Positions 20,618 to 54,666 of a stretch of 64,000 bases of DNA are shown here, piece after piece. Origin of the DNA: Candidatus Altiarchaeota archaeon (GTDB taxonomy: Archaea; Altiarchaeota; Altiarchaeia; IMC4; SCGC-AAA252-I15); contig JAZDNF010000009.1 in the NCBI GenBank assembly GCA_043800255.1, positions 224,001 through 288,000 of the forward strand, given 5' to 3'. The stretch's first letter is position 1, and the number at the start of each line of letters is the position of its first letter. A program made the translations under genes and the position numbers. The notes below the pieces were generated by a model, which searched no databases, had not been told where the DNA came from, and saw only the letters and a program-made list of their open reading frames with translations.

Positions 20618-22579
20618 ATGGTCAGAGAGAGGATACGAGGGAGTAAGCTCACACCCCCAACACTCGATTCCAGTGAACTGATGCCGGTCAGAGGGGGTAA
20701 GGACACTACAAAATCACATAAGGGGCTCCTGTTAGACTTCGTCGGAGAATGCTCCTGGCACCCTGAGGAGAAGGAGAGGCTCATCGCAGTGTTGGATGAT
20801 GATGCCCTGAATTCAAAGGACGTTCCCAGATTCCTAGACCAAGCTAACCGAACCATAGGCTACTACAAGAAGGGGATAGACTATCTCACCAGACAGGCTG
20901 GAGAGGAGGAGATTATAGACTTGGATTTGATGAGATTGGGATTTGCGCACTCCCTGAACGGAACACTCCGGGATTTCAAATTCTACTCCGATGCTGAGAA
21001 AAAAACACTAAGGCCTGAATTGCAGATGATGAAGTCACTTCTTGAGAAAGCCCATCCAGGACGGAGTCAGGATTACGTAAACAATTGGATCGGAGGGATT
21101 GATCTGACCCATAATGGGCTGCCATACGAACCGGGTGTGGAAAGGCATGGCGAGCTTAGGTGGCGTTATGTAACAAGATTGGACGCCGCCGCGAGCGTTC
21201 TGTTGGACGACACGATACTCGACCGTCTCATAAAGACGGATGAGATAAAGGAGGGCCATGATAGCCCACCCCATAATCTCAGAAAGGAAATTACAGAATG
21301 CATATACCGGACTATGAAACCCGAAGATTCCCAGAAGGTGAAGGAGTTGGCACAGCGGGAGAAACAATTGTCAGATAAAATCAAGAGCGACCCGAGTGAT
21401 GATCTATTGGGGCAGATAAGGGAGGCTGAAAAGCTCAGAACCCAGATAACCGCGAAAGCGGACAACGAGAGAGAGGAAAAGCTGAAAGAACTTAGGAAGT
21501 CGATTATCGAAAATTATCAGAGCGTGTTAGAGCTTCCGAAAGATTTCAGCGATAACCCTGAGAAGAAGGAGGAGTACGCAGAGTACGTAACTGATAGGGT
21601 CATAACAAGGGTGAGGAACCTGAACAAGATGCGCCGCATGATGCGCGACCTAAAGGATTGCATCAACGAATCGCCTGACCTCACAAAGGAGGAGGAGCTG
21701 AGCAGAATCAAAACAGACGTTTCGCGTATAATACAGGTTGAGGCGGACTCCAGGAAGAGCATTGAAGGCAAACTCGATGTGCACAATATCGCACCAGCCG
21801 AGTCCAGGACCATACTAATGGAGGTCCGCACAAAGATAGGGAACATGGAGGACTCCAGGTCAAAGGAAAGGAAGCCCGGCTCTTATGACAACATCCGCAC
21901 TCACACTTCCGATGACATGTTCAAGTGGCTTGAGGGTTTAGGAGCCTCTGACGAATGCTTGAGCGTCGGCTACCTCTGGCATGAGAGCCACTCTTGCACG
22001 CCCGAGATGCTATTCTCGGCGACTACAACAACGCTCCTGCTCGAAGGCCAGCAGAGGGGGGTTGAGGCCAGCCTCACAGGCCGGCTTATGCCTGCCATAG
22101 TCGAAGGAAAAATTGAGCCAGTGCTGTTCAGGCAGAAGATGCGCGCGAAGACAGACGACAACCACCGTTACTTCCTGAACGACGCCTTTATCAAGTATGC
22201 CATACTCTCAGGGGCGACGAAGATAGCAGCCCATTCTGGAACAATAGGCGACCCTTTCTCGCTGAAGTTCAATCACAACCTCTTTGAAAAGCCTTTTGTC
22301 GTAGAATATGATGGCGCATCAGGGGAGAAAATCAGGGAGAGAGTGACCTTGACAACCCGCCAGGAGAGGAAAACCACGCTGAAGTTCATAGAGCCTGTGG
22401 GTAGGGCGTCTGAGGGCGTTCTTCACACACACGAGAAAAAGGAGAGATACACCAAAAAGGAGACCATCGAGGGCGTGGAAACCGGCGTCTTCAGCTACCC
22501 GGATGACCTACAACCGGAGAAGGGCAGATATAAGCAGAACATGTGGATTGTAGACATCAGCAGGGAGAGGATACAGTAG
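20618..22579 (+). CDS. Large orphan protein (coiled-coil middle, alpha/beta C-terminus)
   Basis: 653-aa ORF followed by a T-run; no recognised family. Confidence 0.65.
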   Translation: MVRERIRGSKLTPPTLDSSELMPVRGGKDTTKSHKGLLLDFVGECSWHPEEKERLIAVLDDDALNSKDVPRFLDQANRTIGYYKKGIDYLTRQAGEEEIIDLDLMRLGFAHSLNGTLRDFKFYSDAEKKTLRPELQMMKSLLEKAHPGRSQDYVNNWIGGIDLTHNGLPYEPGVERHGELRWRYVTRLDAAASVLLDDTILDRLIKTDEIKEGHDSPPHNLRKEITECIYRTMKPEDSQKVKELAQREKQLSDKIKSDPSDDLLGQIREAEKLRTQITAKADNEREEKLKELRKSIIENYQSVLELPKDFSDNPEKKEEYAEYVTDRVITRVRNLNKMRRMMRDLKDCINESPDLTKEEELSRIKTDVSRIIQVEADSRKSIEGKLDVHNIAPAESRTILMEVRTKIGNMEDSRSKERKPGSYDNIRTHTSDDMFKWLEGLGASDECLSVGYLWHESHSCTPEMLFSATTTTLLLEGQQRGVEASLTGRLMPAIVEGKIEPVLFRQKMRAKTDDNHRYFLNDAFIKYAILSGATKIAAHSGTIGDPFSLKFNHNLFEKPFVVEYDGASGEKIRERVTLTTRQERKTTLKFIEPVGRASEGVLHTHEKKERYTKKETIEGVETGVFSYPDDLQPEKGRYKQNMWIVDISRERIQ

Positions 22580-22615
22580 GATTTTTTTATTAACCGCTAT
22601 TAGTAATTTAATACT

Positions 22616-23446
22616 ATGAGAGGTTGGTGGGTTGTTTTTTTGGTCTTTTTTGCCGCTGCAGCTGACTCGCAGGTTTTCGGAGAGGGTAATGTTATCGTCT
22701 CCGATAATGGCGATGCCCTAGTACTATTGGACTTGTTCGGCAACGGGACTGTGAACGTTCCCACGCCCCTTGATGTAGAGTCTCCTAAGGTGAGAGGGGC
22801 CTTGTATGTCAGCGCATCCAACGGCATAGACGTCTCATTTGACGGCGAGGCTACCGTCGCTTATATGACGCAGCTTCTCACGTCAAAGGACGGTGATGTC
22901 TGGAGTTTCTGGGCGGAGTTGCCTGAGATTCCCATAGGAGTCACGGTCTCATTCCCTGCTAATGCTAGGGTCATCTCAACAGAGCCAACGGCCTTCGTAG
23001 AGCAGGGTGACGATTCAGTGAACGTCATGTGGATTAGCATATCGTCTGAGAACATCTCGGCAGATTACAAGCTCTCGTTCGATGAGCCTGTAACTGCCGC
23101 AGCGCAGCCAGATAGAGGGGGAGTGAATCCTTTCTTGTATGCTGCAGCCCTGTTTGCATTTATCTTTATCTACCTTTACATGAGCCGGCGGAAGTCGGGC
23201 ATAGTACTGTCAAAAGGCAAGAGGAATGTGATGAAAACGCTGACCGGGAACGAGTACAAGATCGTCACATTGTTGCTTGAGAGCAGGGAGGGTCTGAAGA
23301 GGTCAGAGTTGGAGAGGAAGTCAGGCATCGCCAAGTCCTCGCTGGCTTCCGCCCTGTACAATCTGGAGCAGAAGAACATATTAGGAGTTGATAAGACGGA
23401 GGAAATGCACTATGTGGAACTCACAGAGTGGTTCAAGAGCCTCTAG
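22616..23446 (+). CDS. Membrane-anchored transcriptional regulator (signal peptide, extracellular beta-domain, TM, winged HTH)
   Basis: Signal peptide; TM FLYAAALFAFIFIYLYM; C-terminal LTGNEYKIV...RSELERKSGIAKSSLASALYNLEQK wHTH. Confidence 0.8.
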   Translation: MRGWWVVFLVFFAAAADSQVFGEGNVIVSDNGDALVLLDLFGNGTVNVPTPLDVESPKVRGALYVSASNGIDVSFDGEATVAYMTQLLTSKDGDVWSFWAELPEIPIGVTVSFPANARVISTEPTAFVEQGDDSVNVMWISISSENISADYKLSFDEPVTAAAQPDRGGVNPFLYAAALFAFIFIYLYMSRRKSGIVLSKGKRNVMKTLTGNEYKIVTLLLESREGLKRSELERKSGIAKSSLASALYNLEQKNILGVDKTEEMHYVELTEWFKSL

Positions 23447-23504
23447 TTCAGGCCTGTTCAGGTTTGTTCGCACTCCTCTTTATATGGAGTTCATGCGATA
23501 TTCA
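23446..23504 (+). promoter_or_regulatory. Phased GTTCA repeats around a TATA box
   Basis: GTTCA at 23446 and 23456, GTTCG at 23466, TTTATAT at 23479, GTTCA at 23489, ATTCA at 23500. Confidence 0.6.
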
Positions 23505-23518
23505 TTCGGTGATAGGAT

Positions 23519-24487
23519 ATGAAATTTAAGAACATTATGATTTTGCTGGCTGTGACAGTGTTACTGTCCACCATATCGTACGCGAAAGATGATAACAATC
23601 TGGGGAAAATGACCGGCATCGGGCCAAAATTAGACGATGACGACGATGATTCAGATAAACCCGTTAGAGAGGATATGCGGGAAAAGGATAAAAGCATGTC
23701 AGACGAGGAGGATGAGTACGACGATGACATGCGGGGTATAGACGATGACGAGAATGAGACGGACGATGATGACGAGAACGACTCAGATGACGATGCATTA
23801 GAACTGGACGACGAGAACGAGACAGACCACCGCAGACTGGAGGAGAAGAAGGGACAATCCAAGAACAAAACACGTTACCGTGAAGGAGAAAACGAAACCG
23901 ATGATAATGAGGGGGATGAATCCATGGGCCAGATTATTTCCTCCATGAATCAGGCGAGGAGGGAGCAGTTCCGTCTCATGAAGGAGGAGATGAGGCAGAT
24001 CGGCTATCATGGGCCGGTGGACGATTTCGCGGTGGCTTTCAACAGGCAACTTAATCAGCTTCGGTTACAAGTGAGGGAGCGCATCAACTCCTCTGAGGAT
24101 TCGAACCTCACCGCATCAGTTATGCGAGAGGTCGCCCGCAGGGAGCTGGCTCGCATCAGGGAGGAGAAGCTGGCCGGCTTGAATGTCAGCGACAATGATA
24201 CCTTGGAGGCGCTACAAAACATATCAGATTCGGAGGAGAACTTCACAGACGAGATTCATAGCATGAACCACCGGTTCAGGTTCATGGTGAATGAGGTTGC
24301 ATGGAACGGCACAGTCGAGGAGAAGCAGCAGCTGAGGGAGAGAATCAGGAACTATGCGCAGGAGCGGAAAACAACCATCAGACTGCTGAGAGACGCCCTC
24401 AAGTTCAGGTATGAGACCGCCAGAGACCTGCTGAAGGAGAACAGGACGTTGGACGAAATACTGGAAAACCTGTCAGAGTCGGACTAG
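23519..24487 (+). CDS. Secreted, extremely acidic (D/E-rich) protein with helical C-terminus
   Basis: Signal peptide; poly-Asp and repeated ENETD units. Confidence 0.75.
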   Translation: MKFKNIMILLAVTVLLSTISYAKDDNNLGKMTGIGPKLDDDDDDSDKPVREDMREKDKSMSDEEDEYDDDMRGIDDDENETDDDDENDSDDDALELDDENETDHRRLEEKKGQSKNKTRYREGENETDDNEGDESMGQIISSMNQARREQFRLMKEEMRQIGYHGPVDDFAVAFNRQLNQLRLQVRERINSSEDSNLTASVMREVARRELARIREEKLAGLNVSDNDTLEALQNISDSEENFTDEIHSMNHRFRFMVNEVAWNGTVEEKQQLRERIRNYAQERKTTIRLLRDALKFRYETARDLLKENRTLDEILENLSESD

Positions 24488-24549
24488 TCCGATGGTTTCG
24501 GTTCCAGTCAGGTTGTCCATTTTTTTACATGTAATCCCCTAAGGGTTAT

Positions 24550-26151
24550 ATGCGAATCAGTTATCGCACTGGAGGGGGCAGCGGAAGCCAGCCTGAAAAG
24601 GTAAACGTCCCAGCAGACTATGATTCAATCCTTAGACGGGTTAATGAACGTATTCTGGGCCCGTCAAATGTTCAAACGTTTTTCAAACAATACTATCAGA
24701 CTGCTCCCAGCAGGGTTGACGTGCTCTACGGTTTAATGCGCAAAGCGGATGGGACCAACACGAGCGGACCTGAGAGGAAGCCGCTGAACATTGGAATCGC
24801 ATTATTGGAAGGCCGCCCGAGTTGGAGGTCCAATGTAGACGCCAACGGCGCGAAAAAGCTGCTTGAGAAGGTGGCGCAGAGGTTTGACCTGGTTAATCTC
24901 AAAGATAATGGCTACAGCATTGATGAAATAAAGGCTGTGGAAGCAGTTGTCGCGTCCGAGTTGGGCGTTGACGCAATGCAGGACACTCAGAGATGCGGTC
25001 TCCCTTCGCCTATGGGTTTAATCCAACCAGTGCAAGAACATGCAGCAAAGAAGAGAGTTGATCTATCCAGGAACTCCCGCCCCAGGGTATCGCGCCCGGT
25101 AGTCTCAAAGGAGCCTACAGATTATGAAGCCGTTGCCGATGCAGTGTCAAAGCGCGTTATCAGCCCGTCTGATGTCACCCACTTCTTTAGGGAGCATTTC
25201 AACACCGCCCCCGGCAGGGATGAAATCAATGACAGGTTTCTCAGCCAGGAGGGCAGGGCCCGCAGGAAGCCGGTGAGTATCGCGATGGCTCTGATCAAAG
25301 CCCATCCCAGATGGGCTGCCGGCAAGAAGCCGGAGGAGATGAAGAGCGTCCTGGAGAACATGTCATGGATGACCGACCTCGTCGACATTCGGGATGAGAA
25401 GTGCACAGTCGATGAGGTGAAGGCCGTCGAAGCCGCGCTCCTGTCTGAGTTGGGCGACGTCGATTCTGCGCAGATTGTCGATGATAGGCCTTCCATAAAA
25501 CCTGTCGAAGGTTTCAGCAGGCCTGAACTGAGTGAGAGGCGGCAGCTTCTGGCTGTGAGCAGGTCGCATGGTCTGACCAAAATGGTAGGCGACGGGTTTT
25601 TCATGTTTAAGAGGGCGAGTATGATGGCCAACCCAGAGGATGCTGCCAACAAGCTGGTGAATGACATACTGAACCCGTCCATACTGGACATGGTTCCAGG
25701 AATCTCTGATGTCTTTTTCAAATCCAACGATGAGAGTAAAGAGTCCGCGAGGGCGCGCATCAGCGAGGCAGGCATCCGAACGTTCAAAGCTTTTGCCCCC
25801 CAGGTAAGGGTCGCGATACTGGACGCCATAGAGTCCGATATTGACACGAGGATGAGGGATGAGACGAGGAATGACGCGATCCAGGTGTGCGCTAACATGC
25901 TCGACGAGCTGCCTCCGAGGGCCTGCGCGGAGACGTTCACGGAGATGGAGGCTGTGAAGGGTTCGCTGATGCTGGAAGTCATGAAACCTGAAAACGCGGC
26001 GAAAGCGGTTGAAAGACTTCTGAAAAGCGACAACCCGGCCTTCGTTCACAAGGGCTTCAGCCTGATGAACTACCTGCACAAGGATTCTGGAGACAAGATC
26101 AGAAAGAGGTTGAGCAGGGCTTCGCAGAATCAATTAGATGGTGAAACCTAA
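24550..26151 (+). CDS. Orphan protein with tandem duplicated N-terminal domain and MgtE-N/FliG-like helical C-terminus
   Basis: DYDSILRRVNERILGPSNV...RKPLNIGIALL repeated as DYEAVADAVSKRVISPSDV...RKPVSIAMALI. Confidence 0.6.
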   Translation: MRISYRTGGGSGSQPEKVNVPADYDSILRRVNERILGPSNVQTFFKQYYQTAPSRVDVLYGLMRKADGTNTSGPERKPLNIGIALLEGRPSWRSNVDANGAKKLLEKVAQRFDLVNLKDNGYSIDEIKAVEAVVASELGVDAMQDTQRCGLPSPMGLIQPVQEHAAKKRVDLSRNSRPRVSRPVVSKEPTDYEAVADAVSKRVISPSDVTHFFREHFNTAPGRDEINDRFLSQEGRARRKPVSIAMALIKAHPRWAAGKKPEEMKSVLENMSWMTDLVDIRDEKCTVDEVKAVEAALLSELGDVDSAQIVDDRPSIKPVEGFSRPELSERRQLLAVSRSHGLTKMVGDGFFMFKRASMMANPEDAANKLVNDILNPSILDMVPGISDVFFKSNDESKESARARISEAGIRTFKAFAPQVRVAILDAIESDIDTRMRDETRNDAIQVCANMLDELPPRACAETFTEMEAVKGSLMLEVMKPENAAKAVERLLKSDNPAFVHKGFSLMNYLHKDSGDKIRKRLSRASQNQLDGET

Positions 26152-26174
26152 CTTACGAGAACCCTGCAGATGAG

Positions 26175-26230
26175 GTTTCAGTTTATGTTACAGCTGTTTC
26201 AACAGAGGATAACGTCTGTTTCAACTATGT
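26175..26230 (+). promoter_or_regulatory. GTTTCA triple-repeat operator/promoter, copy 1
   Basis: GTTTCA at 26175, 26196 and 26218 (21 and 22 bp spacing); 53/56 nt identical to 29939-29994. Confidence 0.8.
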
Positions 26231-26267
26231 ATTTTTATCAGTAAATTGAATATTCTGAGGTGAGTTT

Positions 26268-26549
26268 ATGGTAAATGAGACTATTGCAGAAGTTGGAGGA
26301 CGAGTTGCCAGGAACATGACATTTCGCGGCGAACCGTCAGGCTGGAGGGAGCCAGTATTAGGGTTCATTCCAGCGCCACTGTTGTGGAATATCATCGTTG
26401 TCGGCGTTGTTGCCTTGATATTCTGGTGGCTTCTCCGGGGCTCGCAGAAGCACGGTGATACTCCCATGGATCTGCTTAAGAAGAGGTATGTGTCAGGCGA
26501 GATAGACAGGAAGACGTATCTGCAGATGAAGGAAGACATAAAAGATTGA
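26268..26549 (+). CDS. SHOCT-domain membrane protein
   Basis: One TM helix, then DLLKKRYVSGEIDRKTYLQMK; SD GAGGTGA. Confidence 0.85.
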   Translation: MVNETIAEVGGRVARNMTFRGEPSGWREPVLGFIPAPLLWNIIVVGVVALIFWWLLRGSQKHGDTPMDLLKKRYVSGEIDRKTYLQMKEDIKD

Positions 26550-26962
26550 GGATGGAAGTTTCCGAGACTCGGCTTGCGGTCGCCATTAGTTCAGTGTTCC
26601 TACTGGGTATACTGCTTTCCATCCTCAACGGCTATTATGTCGAGGATACTGGTTCTCCGATACCGCTCCTGACGTATGGTGTGGCTGCTGGCGGGATGGT
26701 GGTCGGAGCCCTTATCATACTGTTGTTCCAGTGGAGGATAAGTCAGGCGCAGATTGCGAGCATACTGAAGATACTGCCTGACGATGAGAGAGCAATCGTC
26801 GAACTGCTCCTCAAAGAGAGGAAGATGGAACAGACCTATCTTGTGGCAGAGAGCGGGCTGTCGAAGGTCAAAGTCTCCAGAGTATTGATGAAACTCGAAC
26901 AGAGGAGGATAATCGAAAAAAAGCCTCTGGGGAATACCAACCTTATTAAACTCACAATCTAG
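26546..26962 (+). CDS. Two-TM membrane-anchored winged-HTH regulator
   Basis: Two TM helices, then LPDDERAIV...QTYLVAESGLSKVKVSRVLMKLE...GNTNLI. Confidence 0.8.
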   Translation: MRMEVSETRLAVAISSVFLLGILLSILNGYYVEDTGSPIPLLTYGVAAGGMVVGALIILLFQWRISQAQIASILKILPDDERAIVELLLKERKMEQTYLVAESGLSKVKVSRVLMKLEQRRIIEKKPLGNTNLIKLTI

Positions 26963-26970
26963 ATTGTTAC

Positions 26971-27774
26971 ATGGAAAATTCAGCTGATGCCGCTATTTCT
27001 GTCAGTAATCTAACGAAAAAGTTCGGAGAACTTGTTGCAGTAGACGATATCTCTTTCGAAGTCAAGGCTGGCGACGTCTTCGCGTTCCTGGGGCCGAACG
27101 GCGCAGGCAAGTCTACCACGATTAAGATGCTGACGACGCTGTTGAATCCCACATCAGGCACCATGCGCGTCAACGGCTTCGACTGCCGCGTCCATAACAT
27201 AGAAGTCCGAAAATCCTTCGGCATCGTGTTCCAGGACCAGAGCATCGACGAGGAGCTGACAGCCTATGAGAACATGGAATTCCACGGGGTCATATATGGG
27301 GTGCCGAAGGGTCTGCGCGGGGAGCGGATTAGGAAGGCGCTGGAAATGGTGGAATTGTGGGACAGGCGGGATGATTTGGTGAAAAAGTATTCTGGGGGCA
27401 TGAAGAGGAGGCTGGAGATCGCACGGGGGCTCATACATCATCCGAAGATACTGTTCCTGGACGAGCCTACCCTGGGTTTGGACCCGCAGACTAGGAATAG
27501 GATATGGGAGCACATTAGGCAATTGAACGACGAGGAGGGTATGACGATATTCTTCACCACCCATTACATGACGGAGGCTGAGAACGTCGCCGACGATGTC
27601 GCGATAATAGACTATGGTAGGATTATCGGCAGGGGTTCCGTCGATGAGATTAAAAAATTGACTGGAACATCATCATTGGAGGATGCCTTCCTCAATCTGA
27701 CCGGACTGTCTATAAGGGAGGAGAACGCGTCGTCTCTTGACAGGATGCGCAGGATGAGGGGCATGGGAAGATGA
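26971..27774 (+). CDS. ABC-2 (DrrA-like) exporter ATP-binding subunit
   Basis: GPNGAGKST, YSGGMKRRLEIARG, LFLDEPT. Confidence 0.95.
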   Translation: MENSADAAISVSNLTKKFGELVAVDDISFEVKAGDVFAFLGPNGAGKSTTIKMLTTLLNPTSGTMRVNGFDCRVHNIEVRKSFGIVFQDQSIDEELTAYENMEFHGVIYGVPKGLRGERIRKALEMVELWDRRDDLVKKYSGGMKRRLEIARGLIHHPKILFLDEPTLGLDPQTRNRIWEHIRQLNDEEGMTIFFTTHYMTEAENVADDVAIIDYGRIIGRGSVDEIKKLTGTSSLEDAFLNLTGLSIREENASSLDRMRRMRGMGR

Positions 27775-28520
27775 TAGAAGTCATATATGTCATGTGGTTG
27801 AGGCAGTTGAAGAGGTACTGGCGTTCCAAGTCGAGGCTGATAGGCTCGCTGGGGCAGTCTGTTCTCTTTCTGGTCGCGTTGGGCTTCGGCTTCAACCCCG
27901 TGTTCGAGAGGGCCGGCGGGGGCAATTACATCCAGTTCCTGTCCCCGGGGATTATCGCGATGAGCATCCTATTCACTTCCATGTTCACAGGCATAGAGGT
28001 CGTCTGGGACAGGAAGTTCGGCTTCCTGAAGGAGACCCTCGTCGCCCCGATTTCGAGGACGCATATCATGTTGGGGAGGACTTTGGGCGGCGCGACAATC
28101 GCGGTGGCGCAGGGCCTCGTAGTCTTCCTGTTGACATTGCTTGTCGGCTTCAGGCCTTCGGACATGGCTTCGATAGTCCCCGCCATCCTGTTCATGTCAT
28201 TGATAGCCTTGCTGATGACCGCCTTGGGCACCGCGATAGCGTCCAGGATCGATGACATGCACGCCTTCCCGATGGTAATGAATTTCCTTATTATGCCGAT
28301 GTTCTTCCTGTCGGGGGCCTTGTTCCCCTTGGAGGATCTGCCTCCCACCCTCGACCTGCTCGTAAAGCTCAATCCACTATCCTATGGCGTGGACGGCCTG
28401 AGGGGCACATTGACGGGGCAGAGCGGATTCAGCCTCCCGCTTGACCTGACAGTGCTGGCCGTCCTGACTTTAGTCGTGAACTTTGTTGGAGGCTACCTCT
28501 TCTCAAAAATCGAGCTCTGA
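27771..28520 (+). CDS. ABC-2 exporter permease (DrrB-like)
   Basis: Six TM helices, FGFLKETLVAP, FLSGALFP, NPLSYGVD. Confidence 0.92.
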   Translation: MIEVIYVMWLRQLKRYWRSKSRLIGSLGQSVLFLVALGFGFNPVFERAGGGNYIQFLSPGIIAMSILFTSMFTGIEVVWDRKFGFLKETLVAPISRTHIMLGRTLGGATIAVAQGLVVFLLTLLVGFRPSDMASIVPAILFMSLIALLMTALGTAIASRIDDMHAFPMVMNFLIMPMFFLSGALFPLEDLPPTLDLLVKLNPLSYGVDGLRGTLTGQSGFSLPLDLTVLAVLTLVVNFVGGYLFSKIEL

Positions 28521-28528
28521 GAGGGATA

Positions 28529-28813
28529 TCACTCGTTTACTTCCTCTTTGACCTCTTCTTTCCCTGCAGCCAATCCTTCAACCTGCTGTTTGTCCCTGTT
28601 CAGTAGCAGAGTCTGGAATTCTCCAACATGCGTCTTCTCCTCTTTAGCAACATCTAGGAGAATCGCTCTTATGTTCCCGTCCTGTGCCAGCGCAGCCATC
28701 TGCTCGTACAGGTTCACCGCATCCAACTCCGCTATTATAGCGGTTCTCAGTATCTGCCTGTCAACATCCTCCTTATCAACATCCCCAAGGATTACAGGTA
28801 TCTTAGACAACAT
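28529..28813 (-). CDS. Stand-alone encapsulin-cargo-type ferritin-like protein (rubrerythrin/EncFtn-like)
   Basis: Start MLSKIP at 28813 after SD GGAGGTGA; LRTAIIAELDAVNLYEQMA...VAKEEKTHVGEF. Confidence 0.85.
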   Translation of the reverse strand: MLSKIPVILGDVDKEDVDRQILRTAIIAELDAVNLYEQMAALAQDGNIRAILLDVAKEEKTHVGEFQTLLLNRDKQQVEGLAAGKEEVKEEVNE

Positions 28814-28878
28814 ATCAATCACCTCCAAACACCTATTGTGACTGCTGATAAAAATAGCTTCTGCACATTTATCAGCTT

Positions 28879-29091
28879 CTATATCAGAAGAGGGATGATT
28901 AGTAGGTTCCAGCCGGCGGCAAGACTTGTCTCGTATTCGACGGTGGGGGTTATTCCCTTTACCGCCGAATAGGAGAGGTTGCTCACACGGATTACGCTGC
29001 CGTCGTCTATGCAGGTTATGCCCGACGAGGTGACGCCTGTGCTGTTGCCGAGGCATGACGCGAAGTCTGTTTCCACTGTGGCGTTGCACAA
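28879..29091 (-). pseudogene. Probable 3' remnant of a surface-protein gene
   Basis: Cys/Thr/Ser-rich fragment ending SLAAGWNLLIIPLL, resembling the L-x-x-GWNL-I-S-P surface-protein motif; no signal peptide or convincing start. Confidence 0.4.
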
Positions 29092-29182
29092 GAGGAACGG
29101 CGGCGGAAGAGACAGGAACGGCCGAGTCTCACTCGCCGCGCTAAACGGGAAATAATCAGGGCCCCCAGTGATTTTCCGCCGT

Positions 29183-29231
29183 GTTTCAGTTTTTCTTTCG
29201 GGTGTTTCACCCGATCATAATGTCTGTTTCA
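29183..29231 (+). promoter_or_regulatory. GTTTCA triple-repeat operator/promoter, copy 2
   Basis: GTTTCA at 29183, 29204 and 29226 (21 and 22 bp spacing) with divergent spacers. Confidence 0.8.
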
Positions 29232-29260
29232 CCCTAGAGTGTAGGGAGGTGATTTACGAG

Positions 29261-29728
29261 ATGGAAAGGAAGATTGGGATTGTTGCCTTGATGGCCTTGC
29301 TGGCTTTTGGGCTGGTCGTGGCCGTCAACGCGACAGACGATGCGGAAGATGCTGGCAAGAGAGGTTTCCTCCACCGCGGACCCTGCATGGGAGAAAAGCA
29401 GGGCATGAACGCTACCGCGCTCTTAGAAGGCCTCGGATTGTCTGAGAATGCAACGCCTGATGAGGTGAGGGAGGCGCTCTGGCAGAAGAGGCTTGAAGGG
29501 TTAGGCCTTGGTGAGGAGTCTACTGTGGGCGAGTTCCACGCTGCCGTGAAAGCCGAAATGCAGGAGAGGCGTCAGGAGATGCTGGAGAAACTTGGGCTAG
29601 GCGAAGACGCCACACCCGAGGAAATCCGGGAAGCTAGGAAAGCCTACTGCAAGGAAAACCCGGATGACTGCCCGAAAAGGATGAGAGGAGGCTTCGGACG
29701 CGGCATGATGGAAGGTTTTAGGATGTAG
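29261..29728 (+). CDS. Secreted helical Met/Gly/Arg-rich protein (Spy/CpxP/ZraP-like composition)
   Basis: SD GGAGGTGA; signal peptide; three LE(G/K)LGL repeats; tail RMRGGFGRGMM. Confidence 0.7.
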   Translation: MERKIGIVALMALLAFGLVVAVNATDDAEDAGKRGFLHRGPCMGEKQGMNATALLEGLGLSENATPDEVREALWQKRLEGLGLGEESTVGEFHAAVKAEMQERRQEMLEKLGLGEDATPEEIREARKAYCKENPDDCPKRMRGGFGRGMMEGFRM

Positions 29729-29736
29729 GTAACCTC

Positions 29737-29811
29737 GTGGGCGTTTCCAGCGCCATCTGGCGGCACAAAAACCAATGGGATTGATTTAGCGCGCCAGGCT
29801 GGAAACCCCAC
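29737..29811 (+). other. Long intergenic stem-loop
   Basis: GTGGGCGTTTCCAGC pairs with GCTGGAAACCCCAC; inner CTGGCG pairs with CGCCAG. Confidence 0.6.
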
Positions 29812-29822
29812 AACATGTTAAC

Positions 29823-29930
29823 ATGGATTATGAGACGATAACCCTGTGGGGTTTGATACTGTATGGGGTCTGGATATTCGTTGATTACAGGATTAGGAGA
29901 TTAGGTATACAACGCAGAAGTAACGTCTAA
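29823..29930 (+). CDS. Putative 35-aa single-TM microprotein
   Basis: Manual translation MDYETITLWGLILYGVWIFVDYRIRRLGIQRRSNV; hydrophobic core followed by an Arg-rich tail. Confidence 0.4.
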   Translation: MDYETITLWGLILYGVWIFVDYRIRRLGIQRRSNV

Positions 29931-29938
29931 AGTGAGGT

Positions 29939-29994
29939 GTTTCAGTTTCTGTTACAAGTGTTTCAACAGAGGATAACGTCTGTTTCAACTATGT
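29939..29994 (+). promoter_or_regulatory. GTTTCA triple-repeat operator/promoter, copy 3
   Basis: GTTTCA at 29939, 29960 and 29982; near-identical to 26175-26230. Confidence 0.8.
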
Positions 29995-30015
29995 TCTTAG
30001 AAAGGAGGTGCTATT

Positions 30016-30438
30016 TTGGAAAAGAAATTGATAACTCTATTGGGCGTTTTTGTCCTAGTGGCAGGATGCCTTAACCTTGATGATAAAAGCCAAGATGAGC
30101 CTGAAGCGGAGGTGAACGCATTAAGAGAGCACGTCCAGGAGGTCGTTAGAGAGCAACTGAAACCGGAGGAGAATAATCTGCCGGATAATGCCACCCAGGA
30201 GAGGATAATAGAAACCATGCGCGAACGCAGGGGAAACATCAGCCTAGAAAATGGCACCGCCTGGAGGGACATGGGAGGGAGTGTGTTTGAAGGGCGAAAC
30301 CTCACGGACGAGGAAAAGCAGAAACTTATAGAAGAGTTCATGAACAAGGATAATAAAAGTCAAGGTATGCGCGGCAGTCATGAACGACCTGAGGGTATGC
30401 CAGGTCCGATGTCTGATAAAATAATGAAGGAGGAATAA
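30016..30438 (+). CDS. Lipoprotein-like hypothetical protein
   Basis: SD AGGAGGTG, TTG start, LVAGC lipobox, Met/Gly-rich tail. Confidence 0.7.
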   Translation: MEKKLITLLGVFVLVAGCLNLDDKSQDEPEAEVNALREHVQEVVREQLKPEENNLPDNATQERIIETMRERRGNISLENGTAWRDMGGSVFEGRNLTDEEKQKLIEEFMNKDNKSQGMRGSHERPEGMPGPMSDKIMKEE

Positions 30439-30439
30439 G

Positions 30440-32227
30440 ATGAAGAGGAACGGTTTAGTAATGGCATTGATCGTCTTTTGTATTGTATTATCAGTCAGCG
30501 TATCGGCTGCAACAACGTCTACGAGCTCTTCCACATCCATCGAGCCGACGAACATTGTCGTGGATTTTGACTCGACGTCTTTTGACTCGAGCCTGAGCCC
30601 GGGCGACAGCGGGATAATGAACCTGGTCATAAAGAACACAGGAGGATACAGGGCCGATACCTTGCAGGTCTACATTCCGAGCTCGGCGACAGTTAACGCC
30701 GACAAAAGATTTTATGTGGGCCGGCTGGATGCCGGAGGGTCGAAGACCCTCCCTGTCGTGATAAGGGTAGAAAATAATGCGAAGACAGGATTGACTGCGG
30801 TCAACATTCACATAACATATAACGGCTATAAGGCAGATGGAAGTCAGGAGAACAACCTGCTTACAAAATGGGATGTTCCGCTGAGAATCTACGGAAAACC
30901 ATTATTCCAGCTGACTCCGACGAAGACTACATATTATAAGGACAACCTTGATGAGCTGACCCTTGAGGGGACATTGCTAGCATCGGTGAAGGACTTGGAG
31001 TCCACGTTATCATCAAGCTGTCTTACGATCATAGGCTCGTCAAAGAAATACCTGGGCAACCTCAAGGCCAATGAAAAGTTCAACATATCCTACCAGATCA
31101 AGCCATCTGCAGAGGGGGCCTGCACTGCATCAACGTGGATTGAGTACACTGACGAGTCCGGGAGCACGGCGTCGAGGAACATAACAGTCGGGTTGAACAT
31201 CGAAAGCGCTGGTGTGGATTTCAAAGTTTTGAACGTCAGCTACAAGCCAACCGGGCCTGGAGAGACCGTAAACGTTAAGGTGGCGCTGAAGAACGTCGGG
31301 GAAGCGGACGCCAAGGACACCACCTTGAGCCTCACCCTATCCGAGCCATTCGTTCCAGTGGATACTGCAGAAAAATATGTCGGCACCGTGGAAGGCGGCG
31401 AAACCTTTGAAACAGGATTCGACATAGCTGTCGCATGGGACGCAGAGATACAACCCTACTCGATACCTTTGAACATAACCTACAAGGTCGGCGGCACCTC
31501 ATACAGCGTGAAAAAAGACATCGGCATAGACGTTTCAGGGCAGATAATCCTTGAGGTCATAAACGTCCAACAGGCAACCAGGTCGCTTCAGATAGAGGTT
31601 GCGAACATTGGCACAAGGACCGCGGAAGGCGTGAAGGCCATACTCACAACCCAGGAAACGGAGAACAGAACATTTGCCCGCCAGCAGACAACGGGAGCTG
31701 GCACCCAGCAGAGACAGACAGCAAATCCGCTGAACATGCTGACTGGGCGAGGAGTGCGTACAGGAGGCCAGCAGCAGGCGCAGAACCGTTCCACAATCTC
31801 CCAGACTGGCGGAACCCAGCAGATGGTGGAGTACAAGTCTGACATCAAGCCGACAAAGCAGACGACCTTCACTTTTGAGACCACAGTCTCAGGACCGATA
31901 ACCCTGACGCTTGAGTACACTGGCTTGAACAATGAGAGGGTGACGCAGACAGAAGTCTTGTCCGTCGGCGGGACGATGTCTGCCGGCACTTTTACAGGCG
32001 CACAGCAGACCAGCGGAACAAGCACGACAGCTAGGATAGTCTACGCGGCAATCGCCTTACTGCTGATTTGGACAATCTACAGGCGATACAAGCGTGAGAA
32101 GATTATACCCGGATCTGTCAGAAAGCGCATCCCTAAGCAGACGATGGAAAAGGTTGACATATTAGGGGAAAAAATAAACCATGCGCTCGGCAGATTGAGT
32201 AAAAAATTCAGCAGAATAAAGGGATAA
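30440..32227 (+). CDS. COG1361 S-layer-domain family protein (ABC-associated)
   Basis: Signal peptide; Ig-like repeats with PG...L.(I/L)KN.G motifs; Q/T/G low-complexity insert; C-terminal TM. Confidence 0.8.
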   Translation: MKRNGLVMALIVFCIVLSVSVSAATTSTSSSTSIEPTNIVVDFDSTSFDSSLSPGDSGIMNLVIKNTGGYRADTLQVYIPSSATVNADKRFYVGRLDAGGSKTLPVVIRVENNAKTGLTAVNIHITYNGYKADGSQENNLLTKWDVPLRIYGKPLFQLTPTKTTYYKDNLDELTLEGTLLASVKDLESTLSSSCLTIIGSSKKYLGNLKANEKFNISYQIKPSAEGACTASTWIEYTDESGSTASRNITVGLNIESAGVDFKVLNVSYKPTGPGETVNVKVALKNVGEADAKDTTLSLTLSEPFVPVDTAEKYVGTVEGGETFETGFDIAVAWDAEIQPYSIPLNITYKVGGTSYSVKKDIGIDVSGQIILEVINVQQATRSLQIEVANIGTRTAEGVKAILTTQETENRTFARQQTTGAGTQQRQTANPLNMLTGRGVRTGGQQQAQNRSTISQTGGTQQMVEYKSDIKPTKQTTFTFETTVSGPITLTLEYTGLNNERVTQTEVLSVGGTMSAGTFTGAQQTSGTSTTARIVYAAIALLLIWTIYRRYKREKIIPGSVRKRIPKQTMEKVDILGEKINHALGRLSKKFSRIKG

Positions 32228-32228
32228 G

Positions 32229-33416
32229 ATGCTGGACATAGCTTTTAAGAACGTCTTCCGCCAGAAGGCGAGGAGTCTTCTCACCGTCTTAGGCATCGCC
32301 ATGGGCATCGGATTGATACTCATGCTCGGAGCCATAGGCGAGGGACTTAACAGGCAGATCAAACAGTCTTTCGGAGACATAGCCGCAGTGGTTGACGTGA
32401 GGGCGTTCGACAGCGAGGATGGCATAACGGACGACATGATAGAGGATGTCAGGGACATCGAGGGAGTCACCGACGTCATACCCATTGGAGAGTATCGGAT
32501 TACGAGGGGGGGAAACAGGGGCTTCGGAGGGATGATGTTCATGAGGGCGGGAGGCGGGTCGTCCTCGAACATAGCATTCACAGCCCTAAATCCTGAGGAC
32601 CAGGATTACCTGATTGGCGAAAAAATACTTGAAGAGGAAGGCCGCAAGCTAGACACCTCAGACGACGGCCAATATGTCGTCCTATTAGGGCATACCACTG
32701 CCGAAAACCAGTTTCTGAATGTCGGCGACGAGATAGAGTACCAGCGCAGAGTAGACAACGGCGATGAAGAGGATGAGACTGAAAGCTTCTACTTCGAGGT
32801 TATCGGAATACTGGAGGAGACTGGAGACTCGAACATAGACGAAGCGGCCTATGTGCCACTCTCAACGATGCAGGATCTGGAGGACGATGACACGATAACG
32901 CAGCTCAAGGTTAAGATAGACGACATCAACAACGTGGAGACGATAACGCAGAGCATAGACGACCTCTCGGATGAACTGAGGGCTATGTCGCCGCTGGAGA
33001 TGGTGCGCCAGCTGGAGTCAACACTGGGGACGATAACGATGGCAGTCTACGGCATCGGCGCAGTATCCATCATAGTCGGCGGCATCGGAATAATGAACAC
33101 GATGATAATGAGCGTCATGGAGAGAAGGAGGGAGATTGGCGTGATGAAGGCCATCGGCGCGACAACGAGTAACATACTAACCCAGGTTCTGGAAGAATCC
33201 GCGCTGCTGAGCCTGGTAGGGGGCTTCGCCGGGCTGGCATTAGGTTACACGTCAATAATGCTCGTAAAGACTTACACGAGTTTCACGCCGGTATTGACGC
33301 TCAAATTAATCGTGTTGGGTTTCTTGTTCTCGCTGATATTGGGTATGGGCGCCGGCCTCTATCCTGCATGGTCTGCCTCTAAACTGGACCCGATCGAGGT
33401 GCTAAGGTATGAGTGA
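32229..33416 (+). CDS. MacB/FtsX-like ABC permease
   Basis: RSLLTVLGIAMGI, VGGIGIMNTMIMSVMERRREIGVMKAIGA, DPIEVLRYE. Confidence 0.93.
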   Translation: MLDIAFKNVFRQKARSLLTVLGIAMGIGLILMLGAIGEGLNRQIKQSFGDIAAVVDVRAFDSEDGITDDMIEDVRDIEGVTDVIPIGEYRITRGGNRGFGGMMFMRAGGGSSSNIAFTALNPEDQDYLIGEKILEEEGRKLDTSDDGQYVVLLGHTTAENQFLNVGDEIEYQRRVDNGDEEDETESFYFEVIGILEETGDSNIDEAAYVPLSTMQDLEDDDTITQLKVKIDDINNVETITQSIDDLSDELRAMSPLEMVRQLESTLGTITMAVYGIGAVSIIVGGIGIMNTMIMSVMERRREIGVMKAIGATTSNILTQVLEESALLSLVGGFAGLALGYTSIMLVKTYTSFTPVLTLKLIVLGFLFSLILGMGAGLYPAWSASKLDPIEVLRYE

Positions 33417-34086
33417 CGGCCAGATACTCTGCAAGGACCTGATGAAAGTCTACAATCCGGGGCAGCCTAACGAGTGCCGGGCAGTGAATGGTATCAATCT
33501 TTCAATCGAACTGGGAGAATATGCCAGCATCATCGGCCCGTCAGGCTCTGGCAAATCCACCGTCCTCAACCTTATCAGCTGTCTTGACACTCCGACTGAG
33601 GGGGAAGTCTACATCGAGGGTGTTGGTATAAGTTCCCTTAACGGGTTCGAGAAGGCAAAACTCAGGAGGGAGAAGCTCGGCTTCGTGTTCCAGCAGTTCA
33701 ACCTGATCAGGAACATGACAGCGTTCGAGAATGTCGAACTGGCCATGCGCTTTAAGGGCACTCCCGCGAAGGAGCGCAAGGAGAGGGTGACAGGGTTATT
33801 ATCCATCGTGGGCTTAGAGCACAAAGGAGATAACAAGCCTGCCGAGCTCAGCGGCGGCGAGCAGCAGCGAGTAGCTATTGCAAGGTCTTTGGCTAATGAC
33901 CCGAAAATTATACTGGCAGACGAGCCTACAGGCAACCTGGACACGAAAACCGGGGAAAAGATTATGGCGCTGCTGACCCGACTCAACAGGGAGGAGAACA
34001 AAACCCTTATTATCGTCACCCACGACCAGAGAATCGCCAAACAAGCAAACCGCACCATAAGAATCGTGGACGGAAAGATAGCCTAA
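33409..34086 (+). CDS. LolD/MacB-type ABC ATP-binding protein
   Basis: GPSGSGKST, LSGGEQQRVAIAR, ADEPTGNLD. Confidence 0.95.
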   Translation: MSDGQILCKDLMKVYNPGQPNECRAVNGINLSIELGEYASIIGPSGSGKSTVLNLISCLDTPTEGEVYIEGVGISSLNGFEKAKLRREKLGFVFQQFNLIRNMTAFENVELAMRFKGTPAKERKERVTGLLSIVGLEHKGDNKPAELSGGEQQRVAIARSLANDPKIILADEPTGNLDTKTGEKIMALLTRLNREENKTLIIVTHDQRIAKQANRTIRIVDGKIA

Positions 34087-34108: not shown

Positions 34109-34441
34109 TTAGTCTTTCGGCCTCCATTGGTATACTTCATCATGGTGCAACGAACACCATTGTGTTCGTGCATGCGAATTCCAGAGGAATTCGCCATGGT
34201 CGTAGTAGTGGACGTCGACTATTTTGTTTTCGTGGTCGATTTTGAAGATTAGGACGAAGTGGGTGTCGATGTGCACTCGATTGAATGTTTGCAGCGGTTT
34301 CCGCAGATACTTGTATTTGTGGAACGGGTTCCGCCTGATCTCCGCAATCTTCTTGTCGATTATTCTGAGCTGTCCTGTGTTCTTCTTCGCCAGTTTCCTG
34401 AATATTCTGTCAGCCTCAGGTTTAACGCTCAAGGAGTACAT
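34109..34441 (-). CDS. RelE/YafQ-family toxin carrying an in-frame palindromic insertion
   Basis: KKIAEIRRNP, YKYLRKPL, RVHIDTHFVLIFKI; C-terminal DH...HDEVY split by 17 extra residues. Confidence 0.85.
   Translation of the reverse strand: MYSLSVKPEADRIFRKLAKKNTGQLRIIDKKIAEIRRNPFHKYKYLRKPLQTFNRVHIDTHFVLIFKIDHENKIVDVHYYDHGEFLWNSHARTQWCSLHHDEVYQWRPKD
34141..34199. repeat. Double-hairpin (REP/RPE-like) element flanked by CATGG direct repeats
   Basis: TGCAACGAACAC-CATT-GTGTTCGTGCA and GCGAATTCC-AGA-GGAATTCGC lying between CATGG at 34141 and CATGG at 34195. Confidence 0.7.
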
Positions 34442-34443
34442 CC

Positions 34444-34677
34444 TCAGCTTAGACCGTATCTCTTGGCAAAGTCGTCGACGCGGATGCTTTTCTGCCTGCT
34501 TATCGACCTAATCTTTTCGACAAATTCGGGTTTAAGTTCAGGTTCGCTCTCGTACTCTATAAATTCATTCACTATATGCTCTATAGCTTCACCTTTGTTT
34601 TTCAGACCGTACCTAGCCTTAACAATATTCAACACCCTGTTCGTATTCTCGCCTATCTGAACCAGCGCATTAACCAT
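34444..34677 (-). CDS. DUF2683-family antitoxin
   Basis: MVNALVQI...NRVLNIVKARYGLKNK..AI, ELKPEF; immediately upstream of the toxin. Confidence 0.82.
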   Translation of the reverse strand: MVNALVQIGENTNRVLNIVKARYGLKNKGEAIEHIVNEFIEYESEPELKPEFVEKIRSISRQKSIRVDDFAKRYGLS

Positions 34678-54410: not shown

Positions 54411-54614
54411 TTATCCTACTGTGTACCCCAGCTCCCGCACAGCTTCCTTCAGCTTTTCAGCAGGAACCGAATCCGCGCATTCGATGTGCACCGCCCCGCT
54501 GGTGTGGTCTGCCGTTACCTTGGTAACTCCCGGCATTTCCAACAGAGTGTCAGCTATAAGTATGCCGCAGCTCTTGCAGTGCATGCCTTTGACATTGAGG
54601 TCAATCTTGACCAT
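54411..54614 (-). CDS. CopZ-like heavy-metal chaperone
   Basis: VKGMHCKSC...ELGY. Confidence 0.9.
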   Translation of the reverse strand: MVKIDLNVKGMHCKSCGILIADTLLEMPGVTKVTADHTSGAVHIECADSVPAEKLKEAVRELGYTVG

Positions 54615-54628
54615 GGAATCTTATTGTA

Positions 54629-54666
54629 TGAAACCGACTATTAGCAGATGGGTGAAACCAGTTTCA
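54629..54666 (-). promoter_or_regulatory. GTTTCA-type sites upstream of the copper operon
   Basis: TGAAAC at 54629 and 54653 (GTTTCA on the - strand) plus inverted GTTTCA at 54661. Confidence 0.6.

Follow-up and report, generated by a model that had tools for sequence, protein, structure and literature searches.

The window analysed here is a stretch of 64,000 nucleotides (nt) from a Candidatus Altiarchaeota archaeon (assembly GCA_043800255.1; contig 7, positions 224001-288000), the assembly of which comprises 17 contigs and 1,747,814 bp and is 93% complete. On its forward strand, three promoters (P1, P2 and P3; Table 1) each carry the hexamer GTTTCA three times in regularly spaced direct repeats. 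P1 precedes genes for a SHOCT-like membrane protein, a membrane-anchored winged helix-turn-helix (wHTH) protein of the DUF7343 family and an ATP-binding cassette (ABC) exporter of the DrrAB type; P2 precedes the gene for a secreted repeat protein, and P3 those for a lipoprotein, a CARDB-domain surface protein and a MacB-type exporter. Judged from sequence, these arrays are a real and strongly conserved local set of cis-elements that define a predicted compact regulon, and we consider the assignment of the wHTH protein to them as putative regulator to be well-supported.

Phased GTTTCA arrays at three promoters

The window contains the exact pattern GTTTCA-N15-GTTTCA-N16-GTTTCA in three places (26175-26223, 29183-29231 and 29939-29987), always on the plus strand and with hexamer start-to-start distances of 21 and 22 bp. 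A relaxed pattern, in which both spacers could range from 14 to 17 nt, gave three matches whose spacers were again exactly 15 and 16 nt, and none in each of 100 dinucleotide-preserving shuffles. This bears out the first-pass annotation of this DNA, which had described three promoters with identically spaced triple hexamers and had proposed a genome-wide scan. Such a scan of the whole assembly returned the same three exact matches only, and none for the reversed-pattern control. With a weight matrix trained on 58 sites from other genomes, the window's genome being excluded, P1, P3 and P2 scored 63.2, 63.1 and 53.7 bits, respectively; all other positions of the genome, and all reversed controls, stayed at or below 8 bits. 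Same-strand pairs of GTTTCA separated by 12-20 nt numbered eight in this genome, against none for a control hexamer. Six of the pairs belong to the three promoters and one to the class C site described below; the eighth, on contig 17, sits within an RHS-like open reading frame (ORF) of the opposite strand and was taken as chance. The predicted regulon of this genome would therefore comprise exactly these three promoters.

Between copies 1 and 2, 10 of 49 positions have changed; every one of them is among the 31 spacer positions and none among the 18 hexamer positions (probability by chance, 0.0054), as would be expected under the selection on hexamers and phasing that had been suggested for these promoters. 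Copies 1 and 3 differ at just 3 of 49 positions, a similarity that a recent local duplication of one promoter, without selection on the hexamers, could also explain. Such an origin is hardly credible, given where the changes in copy 2 fall and given that 30 genomes from several families retain the hexamers and their spacing despite free change in the spacers.

Conservation and gene context across Altiarchaeota

We surveyed 61 Altiarchaeota genomes for the array with fixed spacers and at most one mismatch, using the reversed pattern as a control. Sixty sites were detected in 30 genomes, compared with none for the control in all 61, and they stand upstream of the same gene sets as in the window, as the first-pass annotation had anticipated for orthologues in related genomes. 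All array-positive genomes lie within the window's order, and the array was found in none of 12 genomes from two families of one or more other orders.

Gene context was read in 40 fetched loci, which took in as much as 20 kb about the sites; the window's proteins were compared with these loci, and the context was tallied for 62 sites with up to two mismatches. Genes for secreted repeat proteins of the 155-amino-acid (aa) type follow 24 of these sites; 16 precede a SHOCT-like gene and then the regulator gene, and 18 precede a CARDB-MacB-ATPase operon, often after a small ORF with a lipobox. The other four precede different small secreted or membrane proteins, several of which are Cys/His-rich. 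Further small membrane proteins linked to arrays or to the cluster were noted at L056 5536-6000 (genome G036), at L058 6098-6367 (G024) and upstream of position 722 in L054 (G032); these have either a conserved FITG..K.P / H..LHW.W segment or Cys/Asp tails resembling C-x-YPGNCGRFID-x-D-x-D-x-CD.

The hexamer columns were pre-selected by the pattern search, and the invariance of the hexamers across sites is for that reason not independent evidence, which comes instead from the unselected columns and the gene context. Over 61 distinct sites, conservation was seen at spacer positions 8-13 (TTTnTG), 16-19 (ACRG), 21 (T), 35-38 (WTAT) and 43 (T), and the remaining spacer positions vary freely while hexamers and phasing hold. 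This amends the first-pass annotation in one respect, in that the first spacer is not free. The element is accordingly a composite of about 50 bp with a fourth, degenerate hexamer, GYWACR, at positions 13-18.

Promoter geometry

The sole TATA-like element of the array is the WTAT at positions 35-38 with the A-rich stretch before it. In the window it reads GGATAAC in copies 1 and 3 and TCATAAT in copy 2, and nothing else of the kind lies between sites 2 and 3, in line with the weak AT element originally noted there. Both are poor boxes by the standards of this genome, the upstream regions of which favour TTTATA and TATATA words: in a k-mer count over 470 upstream intergenic regions, delimited with a crude ORF caller, these and similar words were 6-8-fold enriched, and they are absent from the three promoters.

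At 8 of the 62 sites an ATG without a Shine-Dalgarno sequence stands 14-15 nt after site 3, and where a Shine-Dalgarno sequence is present it begins, as read by eye, no earlier than +13 or +14. The leaderless ATGs place the putative transcription start at that point. The canonical distance from TATA centre to start in archaea is 26-27 nt, and with a start at about +12 to +15 after site 3 the TATA centre would lie at just this distance upstream. Relative to such a start, the hexamers would occupy about -63/-58, -42/-37 (abutting the B recognition element, BRE) and -20/-15, with the TATA box at about -32/-25.

P1 has in addition a second TATA-like run, TATTTTTATC, at 26230-26239, just after site 3. 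TATA-like words in this position were found at 9 of 12 promoters directly upstream of SHOCT genes, whereas the two remaining classes had them at 2 of 24 and 5 of 18 promoters, and the TATTTTTATC run may possibly serve as a basal promoter for the regulator operon.

The same geometry bears on whether the conserved 50 nt might be a transcribed RNA element such as a leader, a riboswitch or a small RNA. Copy 2 can indeed fold a local hairpin (z -2.70), but this is not shared by copies 1 and 3, which fold no better than shuffled sequences (z -0.43 and -0.34). The repeats are direct rather than complementary, no Rfam family reached the gathering threshold anywhere in the window, and the leaderless ATGs put the array upstream of the transcript. 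We regard an RNA element as very improbable.

A membrane-anchored DUF7343 protein as candidate regulator

The only DNA-binding protein encoded in the conserved cluster is the two-transmembrane (TM) wHTH protein encoded behind P1, referred to here with its orthologues as class A. Its start was set at the conserved MEVSE (26552); the ORF as listed begins at a TTG at 26546. The protein matches Pfam DUF7343 (PF24034) with 46.7 bits, above the gathering threshold of 27.6. Three proteins of the window's genome exceed this cut-off, and the class B and C paralogues introduced below pass it as well. An AlphaFold2 model (mean predicted local distance difference test, pLDDT, 82) has helices at residues 5-33 and 39-72 and a canonical wHTH at 77-134, that is, an N-terminal hairpin of two TM helices with an outer loop of about 5-10 residues, followed by a C-terminal DNA-binding domain. 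The TM regions were judged from the model's helices and from conservation, without a dedicated TM predictor. By Foldseek, the best matches were wHTH domains of the MarR and ArsR/SmtB types (E 4e-4). Sequence matches to MarR_2, ArsR and Lrs14 models were weak, those to MarR_2 (17.4 bits, cut-off 27) and to the ArsR model NF033788 (24.9 bits, cut-off 55) both remaining under threshold, and matches to solved structures were marginal.

Twenty-four orthologues share 68-91% identity with the regulator, and both hydrophobic helices are conserved among them. Invariant or nearly so are the N-terminus, the loop N-G...T-G...P, the membrane exit FQW, the recognition helix G-L-S-K-V-K-V-S-R and the wing L-G-N-T-N-L. 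With a predicted DNA-binding domain and a TM region, the protein falls under the definition of a transmembrane transcription regulator as given in the excerpts of the relevant census (PMC10269533).

Class A orthologues, defined as full-length matches with E <= 1e-44 (the next best matches, none stronger than 7.5e-36, belong to the other order), are present in 29 of the 61 genomes. Array and regulator occur together in 28 genomes and are both missing from 30; two genomes have the array only and one the regulator only. The two array-only genomes, G047 and G048, are 60% and 75% complete, and in the regulator-only genome, G017, the orthologue is 54% identical and lies on a 3-kb contig. An array was found on the same strand within 2.5 kb upstream of 22 of the 29 orthologues and within 100 nt downstream of 17; in five genomes (G008, G019, G010, G036 and G050) the arrays lie on contigs other than that of the regulator gene. 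Since array and regulator are physically linked, their co-distribution mainly shows that the unit is gained or lost as a whole. The co-occurrence nevertheless has the form expected from the first-pass annotation, and its choice of the two-TM wHTH protein as candidate regulator is upheld by the way in which this sole conserved DNA-binding protein tracks the array over the phylum.

The expected absence of a histidine kinase from the window was likewise seen. The two HisKA genes of the genome lie at contig 7:162073 and contig 8:222523, both outside the window, and its best receiver-domain matches are open frames of 122-138 aa. A kinase with a DNA-binding response regulator, as in the envelope-stress systems CpxRA, BaeSR and CusRS, is not encoded at the locus.

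Genes of the cluster

The features of the cluster are collected in Table 1. The SHOCT-like gene, which ends 2 nt before the regulator's ATG, stands directly upstream of the regulator gene in all related loci. Its match to SHOCT (PF09851) covers profile positions 2-27 of 28 and, at 20.5 bits (E 4e-4), lies below the threshold of 27; the motif is conserved in 20 orthologues, which share 40-59% identity. The DrrA-type gene starts 8 nt after the regulator gene and is, from this spacing, a predicted member of the regulator's operon. Together with the ABC-2 permease behind it, the DrrA-type ATPase makes up a DrrAB/ABC-2 exporter.

Table 1. Features of the GTTTCA cluster (window positions; predicted starts and TATA-like cores as described in the text)
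Feature	Position	Strand	Parts or basis
Promoter-operator P1	26174..26223	+	hexamers 26175-26180, 26196-26201, 26218-26223; degenerate GTTACA 26187-26192; TATA-like ATAA core 26209-26212; putative start about 26235-26238
SHOCT-like protein, 93 aa, single-pass membrane protein with C-terminal motif	26268..26549	+	Pfam, alignment
Class A transmembrane transcription regulator (predicted), 136 aa	26552..26962	+	DUF7343 match, model
DrrA-type ABC ATPase	26971..27774	+	TIGR01188 drrA 317.8 bits (cut-off 312.45); Pfam ABC_tran
ABC-2 (DrrB-type) exporter permease	27771..28520	+	ABC2_membrane 128.5 bits; TIGR01247 drrB 212.9 (cut-off 223.05)
Promoter-operator P2	29182..29231	+	hexamers 29183-29188, 29204-29209, 29226-29231; ATAA core 29217-29220; putative start about 29240-29246; Shine-Dalgarno GGGAGGTGA at 29244-29252
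Secreted or membrane-anchored helical protein, 155 aa	29261..29728	+	alignment of 16 orthologues
Promoter-operator P3	29938..29987	+	hexamers 29939-29944, 29960-29965, 29982-29987; GTTACA 29951-29956; ATAA core 29973-29976; putative start about 29997-30002; Shine-Dalgarno AAGGAGGTG at 30003-30011
Predicted lipoprotein, 140 aa	30016..30438	+	translation; signal peptide ending in lipobox VAGC
CARDB/NEW3-domain surface protein, 595 aa	30440..32227	+	Pfam CARDB, NPCBM_assoc; N-terminal signal, C-terminal TM anchor
MacB/LolCE-type (FtsX) ABC permease	32229..33416	+	MacB_PCD 102.3 bits, FtsX 77.3 bits
LolD/MacB-type ABC ATPase	33409..34086	+	ABC_tran 124.1 bits; TIGR02211 242 bits (cut-off 307.75)

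The 155-aa protein behind P2 has three LGL-x-E-D/N-A/S-T repeats and a Cys/Met/Gly-rich tail, and its orthologues are 37-59% identical; like the SHOCT-like protein, it is less conserved than the regulator. It had been called Spy/ZraP-like, a description that none of our searches reproduced. No Pfam family was matched at E <= 0.01 and no relevant NCBIfam family was found; the profile search of the PDB gave a best E of 0.098 or higher and no Spy, CpxP or ZraP chain at E <= 1. The AlphaFold2 model (pLDDT 75; above 90 for a four-helix core at residues 50-133) matched nothing in the PDB at E <= 0.001 by Foldseek. With VIA-align, its best matches were helix-loop-helix proteins (best Z 5.3), with no Spy/CpxP/ZraP chaperone among the matches, and the protein atlas gave leads under 0.9 only.

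In the operon behind P3, the 140-aa lipoprotein had no tblastn match in other loci; small lipobox ORFs, recognized by eye, occupy its place between array and CARDB gene in other genomes, and the protein appears to be fast-evolving. Orthologues of the 595-aa CARDB protein downstream of arrays are 43-62% identical. The permease, whose NCBIfam MacB/LolCE matches stay under the equivalog cut-offs, combines a MacB periplasmic core with FtsX and is accompanied by a separate ATPase, the composition of a MacB-type (type VII) transporter.

The first-pass annotation had also drawn 22616-26151 into the regulon. This segment holds no array and is not part of the regulon. In a search of 22 related loci, no relatives turned up for the proteins of 20618-26151, nor for a 95-aa ferritin-fold protein, EncFtn-like or rubrerythrin-like, encoded between the regulated operons at 28529-28816 (-). 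Both 20618-26151 and the ferritin-like gene lie outside the conserved unit. After the last ATPase gene, two adjacent ORFs of 110 and 77 aa (34109-34677, -) are toxin-antitoxin-like by size and arrangement only. Aragorn found only six tRNA genes in the 1.75-Mb, 93%-complete assembly.

Paralogues with other operator arrangements

Orthologues of the MacB-type permease occur in 35 of the 61 genomes, in some of them without the array and without a class A regulator. In seven genomes with a CARDB-MacB operon that lacks a class A array (loci L089 in G004, L090 in G016, L091 in G006, L093 in G029, L092 in G028, L095 in G007, contig 71, and L088 in G002, the last with a variant form), the operon is flanked by a divergently transcribed gene for a DUF7343 membrane protein of 186-224 aa, class B. 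In this protein an outer segment of about 70-90 residues separates TM1 from TM2, the DUF7343 domain comes last, and the recognition helix reads S-R-V-K-V/T-H-R. The intergenic region carries GTTTCA-N11-GTTTCA-N4-GTTTCA-N17-GTTTCA around a TTTATAT box, with the start codon of the class B regulator abutting the first hexamer; the exact three-hexamer core was found once each in 5 of the 61 genomes, and the control gave none. The exchange of one regulator for another at the same operon, with the hexamer kept, is the strongest argument for the proposed pairing of regulator and operator.

A third class, C, is represented in the window itself by a 160-aa DUF7343 protein (54668-55150, -) with two TM helices, a Cys-rich outer loop and the helix S-K-V-K-A-T-R. 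Its operator, TGAAAC-N2-GTTTCA-N18-GTTTCA (54666..54629, -), directly follows the stop codon of the paralogue, and 14 nt after the operator comes the ATG of a 67-aa HMA protein (54411-54614, -). The next gene encodes a 488-aa membrane protein with HMA, DsbD_2 and cupredoxin-like parts (52939-54405, -), and upstream of the class C gene lies an FTR1-type permease gene (55217-56071, -). In this setting, the class C protein is probably a metal-responsive membrane-anchored regulator. The class C pattern has 16 sites in 15 of the 61 genomes, with none for the control, and the paralogue stands directly upstream in 7 of 12 fetched loci.

In the other order, regulators 42-48% identical to class A keep the helix S/N-K-V-K-V/I-S-R and the wing L-G-N-T-N, and are accompanied by four GTTTCA-type hexamers at a spacing of 20-22 bp (L074 10725..10658 in G059, L073 7236..7168 in G053 and L075 from 5393 onward in G054). 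Here a TATA-like word directly follows the last site, an all-upstream, activator-like layout.

Two paralogues of the window's own genome have different recognition helices, and no GTTTCA pair was found near either. One is the 276-aa protein encoded at 22616-23446 (+). Behind a signal peptide it has an outer domain of some 170 residues and then a TM helix, and its wHTH, on the cytoplasmic side, shares 30% identity with that of class A (E 9e-7). The next genes encode a secreted acidic protein (23519-24487) and a protein of 533 aa, and none of the three proteins had relatives in the 22 loci. The other is a 324-aa membrane-anchored DUF7343 protein with a large outer domain (contig 3:1320-2294, -), the gene of which lies directly upstream of that of a large secreted protein (1-1137, -).

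Across three paralogue classes and two orders, then, helix and half-site travel together. We tentatively propose, as a possibility that falls some way short of likely, that at least three classes of membrane-anchored DUF7343 proteins share the helix S-K/R-V-K-x-x-R and read GTTTCA, in the manner of a code of one helix for one half-site. The promoter served would be set by operator syntax (the number, spacing and orientation of the hexamers) together with the type of sensor module, be it a domain of 70-90 residues or a loop that is short or Cys-rich, and regulators would be swappable at one operon. Phased sites would, under the same proposal, let tethered proteins hold one face of a promoter and TBP the other.

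A model for the regulon and its alternatives

Taken as a whole, the model in which the arrays are promoter-operators of a regulon run by the cluster's own 136-aa regulator, with a signal at the membrane leading to activation of the three operons, is in our estimate just under an even bet. Its parts deserve separate weighing: the protein encoded at 26552-26962 is likely to be the binder of the arrays, and, given binding, activation or a bound switch would be a reasonably probable mode of action, with pure repression quite conceivable.

The regulator would sit in the cytoplasmic membrane by its N-terminal hairpin, with the MarR/ArsR-like wHTH about ten residues after the membrane, and several copies would bind the GTTTCA hexamers, bracketing the sub-consensus TATA box. 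Distances of 21 and 22 bp amount to two helical turns, so that all hexamers would lie on one face of the DNA; a wHTH about ten residues past a membrane helix could reach DNA from one side only, and hexamers on one face would suit a protein approaching from the membrane. TBP would occupy the minor groove of the TATA box on the opposite face, about one turn from sites 2 and 3. On a membrane signal, the bound regulator would help TBP and TFB to use the weak box, switching on the regulator with its DrrAB-type exporter, the secreted repeat protein, and the lipoprotein-CARDB-MacB-type exporter operon. With an outer loop of a few residues, sensing would have to occur within the membrane or via a partner, and the signal might be relayed by the co-translated SHOCT-like protein or by the exporters. 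The Cys/His-rich secreted targets in other genomes hint at metal or thiol stress as the signal, and the exporters among the targets at membrane-active compounds.

Activation of weak promoters, as proposed in the first-pass annotation, is one of two candidate modes of control. The same binder may instead be a MarR/ArsR-style repressor that coats the region from -63 to -15 and blocks recruitment of RNA polymerase, the signal then derepressing the three operons. In each of the three operator classes a site follows the TATA core by 4-6 nt, the class B arrays flank a near-consensus TTTATAT box, and the closest folds are those of the MarR and ArsR/SmtB repressors. Coverage of a promoter by multiple sites is, moreover, a known pattern of archaeal repression, as with MDR1 and LrpA. 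The class A TATA boxes, however, are sub-consensus, most of all in the window's genome, and two of the sites lie directly upstream of the BRE, where archaeal activators such as Ptr2 and TFB-RF1 bind. In the other order, the TATA-like box comes after the last site. ToxR, TcpP and CadC are activators, and so, in the excerpts available of the respective papers, are the comparable regulators ArnR/ArnR1 (PMC6396743) and BcrR (PMC3968067). Activation is thus favoured by the weak TATA boxes, by sites placed upstream of the BRE and by how ArnR and BcrR behave, and repression by the site between TATA box and start, the strong class B TATA box and the MarR/ArsR-like fold. On balance, we consider a repressor of this kind rather unlikely.

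Another reading accepts the arrays as operators but assigns them to a different factor, for example a specialised TFB or TBP, the class C paralogue or some soluble regulator whose gene lies elsewhere, and makes the two-TM protein merely one of the regulated products. It can draw on the linkage that confounds the co-occurrence, on the S-K-V-K-x-x-R helix that the class C paralogue shares, and on the two genomes with arrays and no detected class A orthologue. Those two genomes are the incomplete ones mentioned above, however; each of the three paralogue classes adjoins its own hexamer arrangement; the class C operator is found in 15 of the 61 genomes, against 30 for the class A array; and no further DNA-binding gene is conserved in the cluster. 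We judge a different factor to be decidedly unlikely.

Several observations weigh against the activation model in which the class A protein is the regulator. The hexamer at -20/-15, between TATA box and start, is in the usual position of an archaeal repressor site; class B promoters and some class C promoters have near-consensus TATA boxes; and MarR and ArsR proteins, which have the nearest folds, act for the most part as repressors. In principle, the class C paralogue of the same genome could bind the arrays through its shared helix motif. With array and gene linked, their joint loss carries little weight by itself, and related genomes do not count as independent cases. Finally, 7 of the 29 orthologues have no array upstream in the sequence examined, so that autoregulation is not universal, and in G024 and G045 a separate AT-rich promoter, preceded by a hairpin, stands before the regulator operon.

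Relation to known regulatory systems

No mention of DUF7343 was found in the literature searched, and a search on membrane transcriptional regulators of Altiarchaeum, judged by title and abstract, returned nothing on the subject. Transmembrane transcription regulators as such are a described class, the excerpts of a census giving 1,384 in 367 of 404 archaeal species (PMC10269533), and we read the system described here as a known kind of regulator in an undescribed family and architecture. Among archaeal membrane-bound regulators, ArnR and ArnR1 of Sulfolobus acidocaldarius have been studied experimentally (PMC6396743) and resemble the predicted system here in being membrane-anchored DNA-binding proteins that act on few envelope-related promoters without a kinase. 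In the present protein, the hairpin is N-terminal and the wHTH C-terminal, the family is DUF7343, the targets include exporters and the phylum is a different one. ArnR, by contrast, has an N-terminal helix-turn-helix (HTH) domain and C-terminal membrane helices, and controls archaellum and pilus genes.

A comparable setting is that of BcrR-BcrAB of Enterococcus faecalis. As far as excerpts of the report go (PMC3968067), BcrR is a one-component transmembrane regulator that lacks an obvious extracellular domain and induces the neighbouring ABC exporter, bcrR forming a separate transcription unit. In the archaeal cluster, unlike in this bacterial one, the DrrAB/ABC-2 exporter would share the regulator's operon, and the operator is built of three direct repeats in phase, with an archaeal TATA box among them. 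BcrR itself differs in its type of HTH and in having four TM helices. In the Bce modules of Firmicutes (BceRS-BceAB), the sensor has two TM helices with next to no outer loop and induces a coupled ABC transporter of the MacB/FtsX type. The present regulator likewise has two TM helices and a tiny outer loop, and a MacB/FtsX-type transporter is among its predicted targets; unlike in Bce modules, with their histidine kinase and response regulator, sensor and DNA-binding domain are here one protein, and the window has no kinase. The resemblance to MarR and ArsR/SmtB concerns the fold of the DNA-binding domain only: those proteins are soluble dimers on palindromes, whereas the present one is membrane-anchored, is associated with direct repeats two turns apart and scores under the family cut-offs.

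ToxR/ToxS, TcpP/TcpH and CadC are, according to excerpts of the work on them (PMC10269533, PMC7496328, PMC5430869), also membrane-tethered and act at repeated sites, and the SHOCT-like protein co-encoded with the regulator recalls the small single-pass partners of ToxR and TcpP. The label ToxR-like given in the first-pass annotation fits this way of working but not the architecture. In the ToxR family, an OmpR-type wHTH at the N-terminus is followed by a single TM helix and a periplasmic sensor; here the order is reversed, the loop has about 5-10 residues, there is no outer domain, and Pfam gave no Trans_reg_C match at E <= 0.01. The regulator does not, on these grounds, classify as a ToxR-like receptor.

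Significance

Regulator family, half-site, three operator syntaxes and the full predicted target set can be read from sequence in an uncultivated phylum, and the system is directly testable, since a soluble domain of 65 residues and DNA fragments of 50 bp suffice. It opens the question of how a membrane-bound regulator recognizes its promoters and communicates with TBP and TFB. Double-membraned archaea are rare and include Ca. Altiarchaeum, and the components of their outer membrane are said to be unknown in the excerpts at hand (PMC4500143). The targets of the arrays, comprising two exporters, a lipoprotein and secreted proteins, are thus candidate envelope-maintenance genes of double-membraned archaea. 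If the tentative code of one helix and one half-site holds true, DUF7343 regulators, and not kinases, would be the main route of transmembrane signalling to transcription in this double-membraned archaeal lineage.

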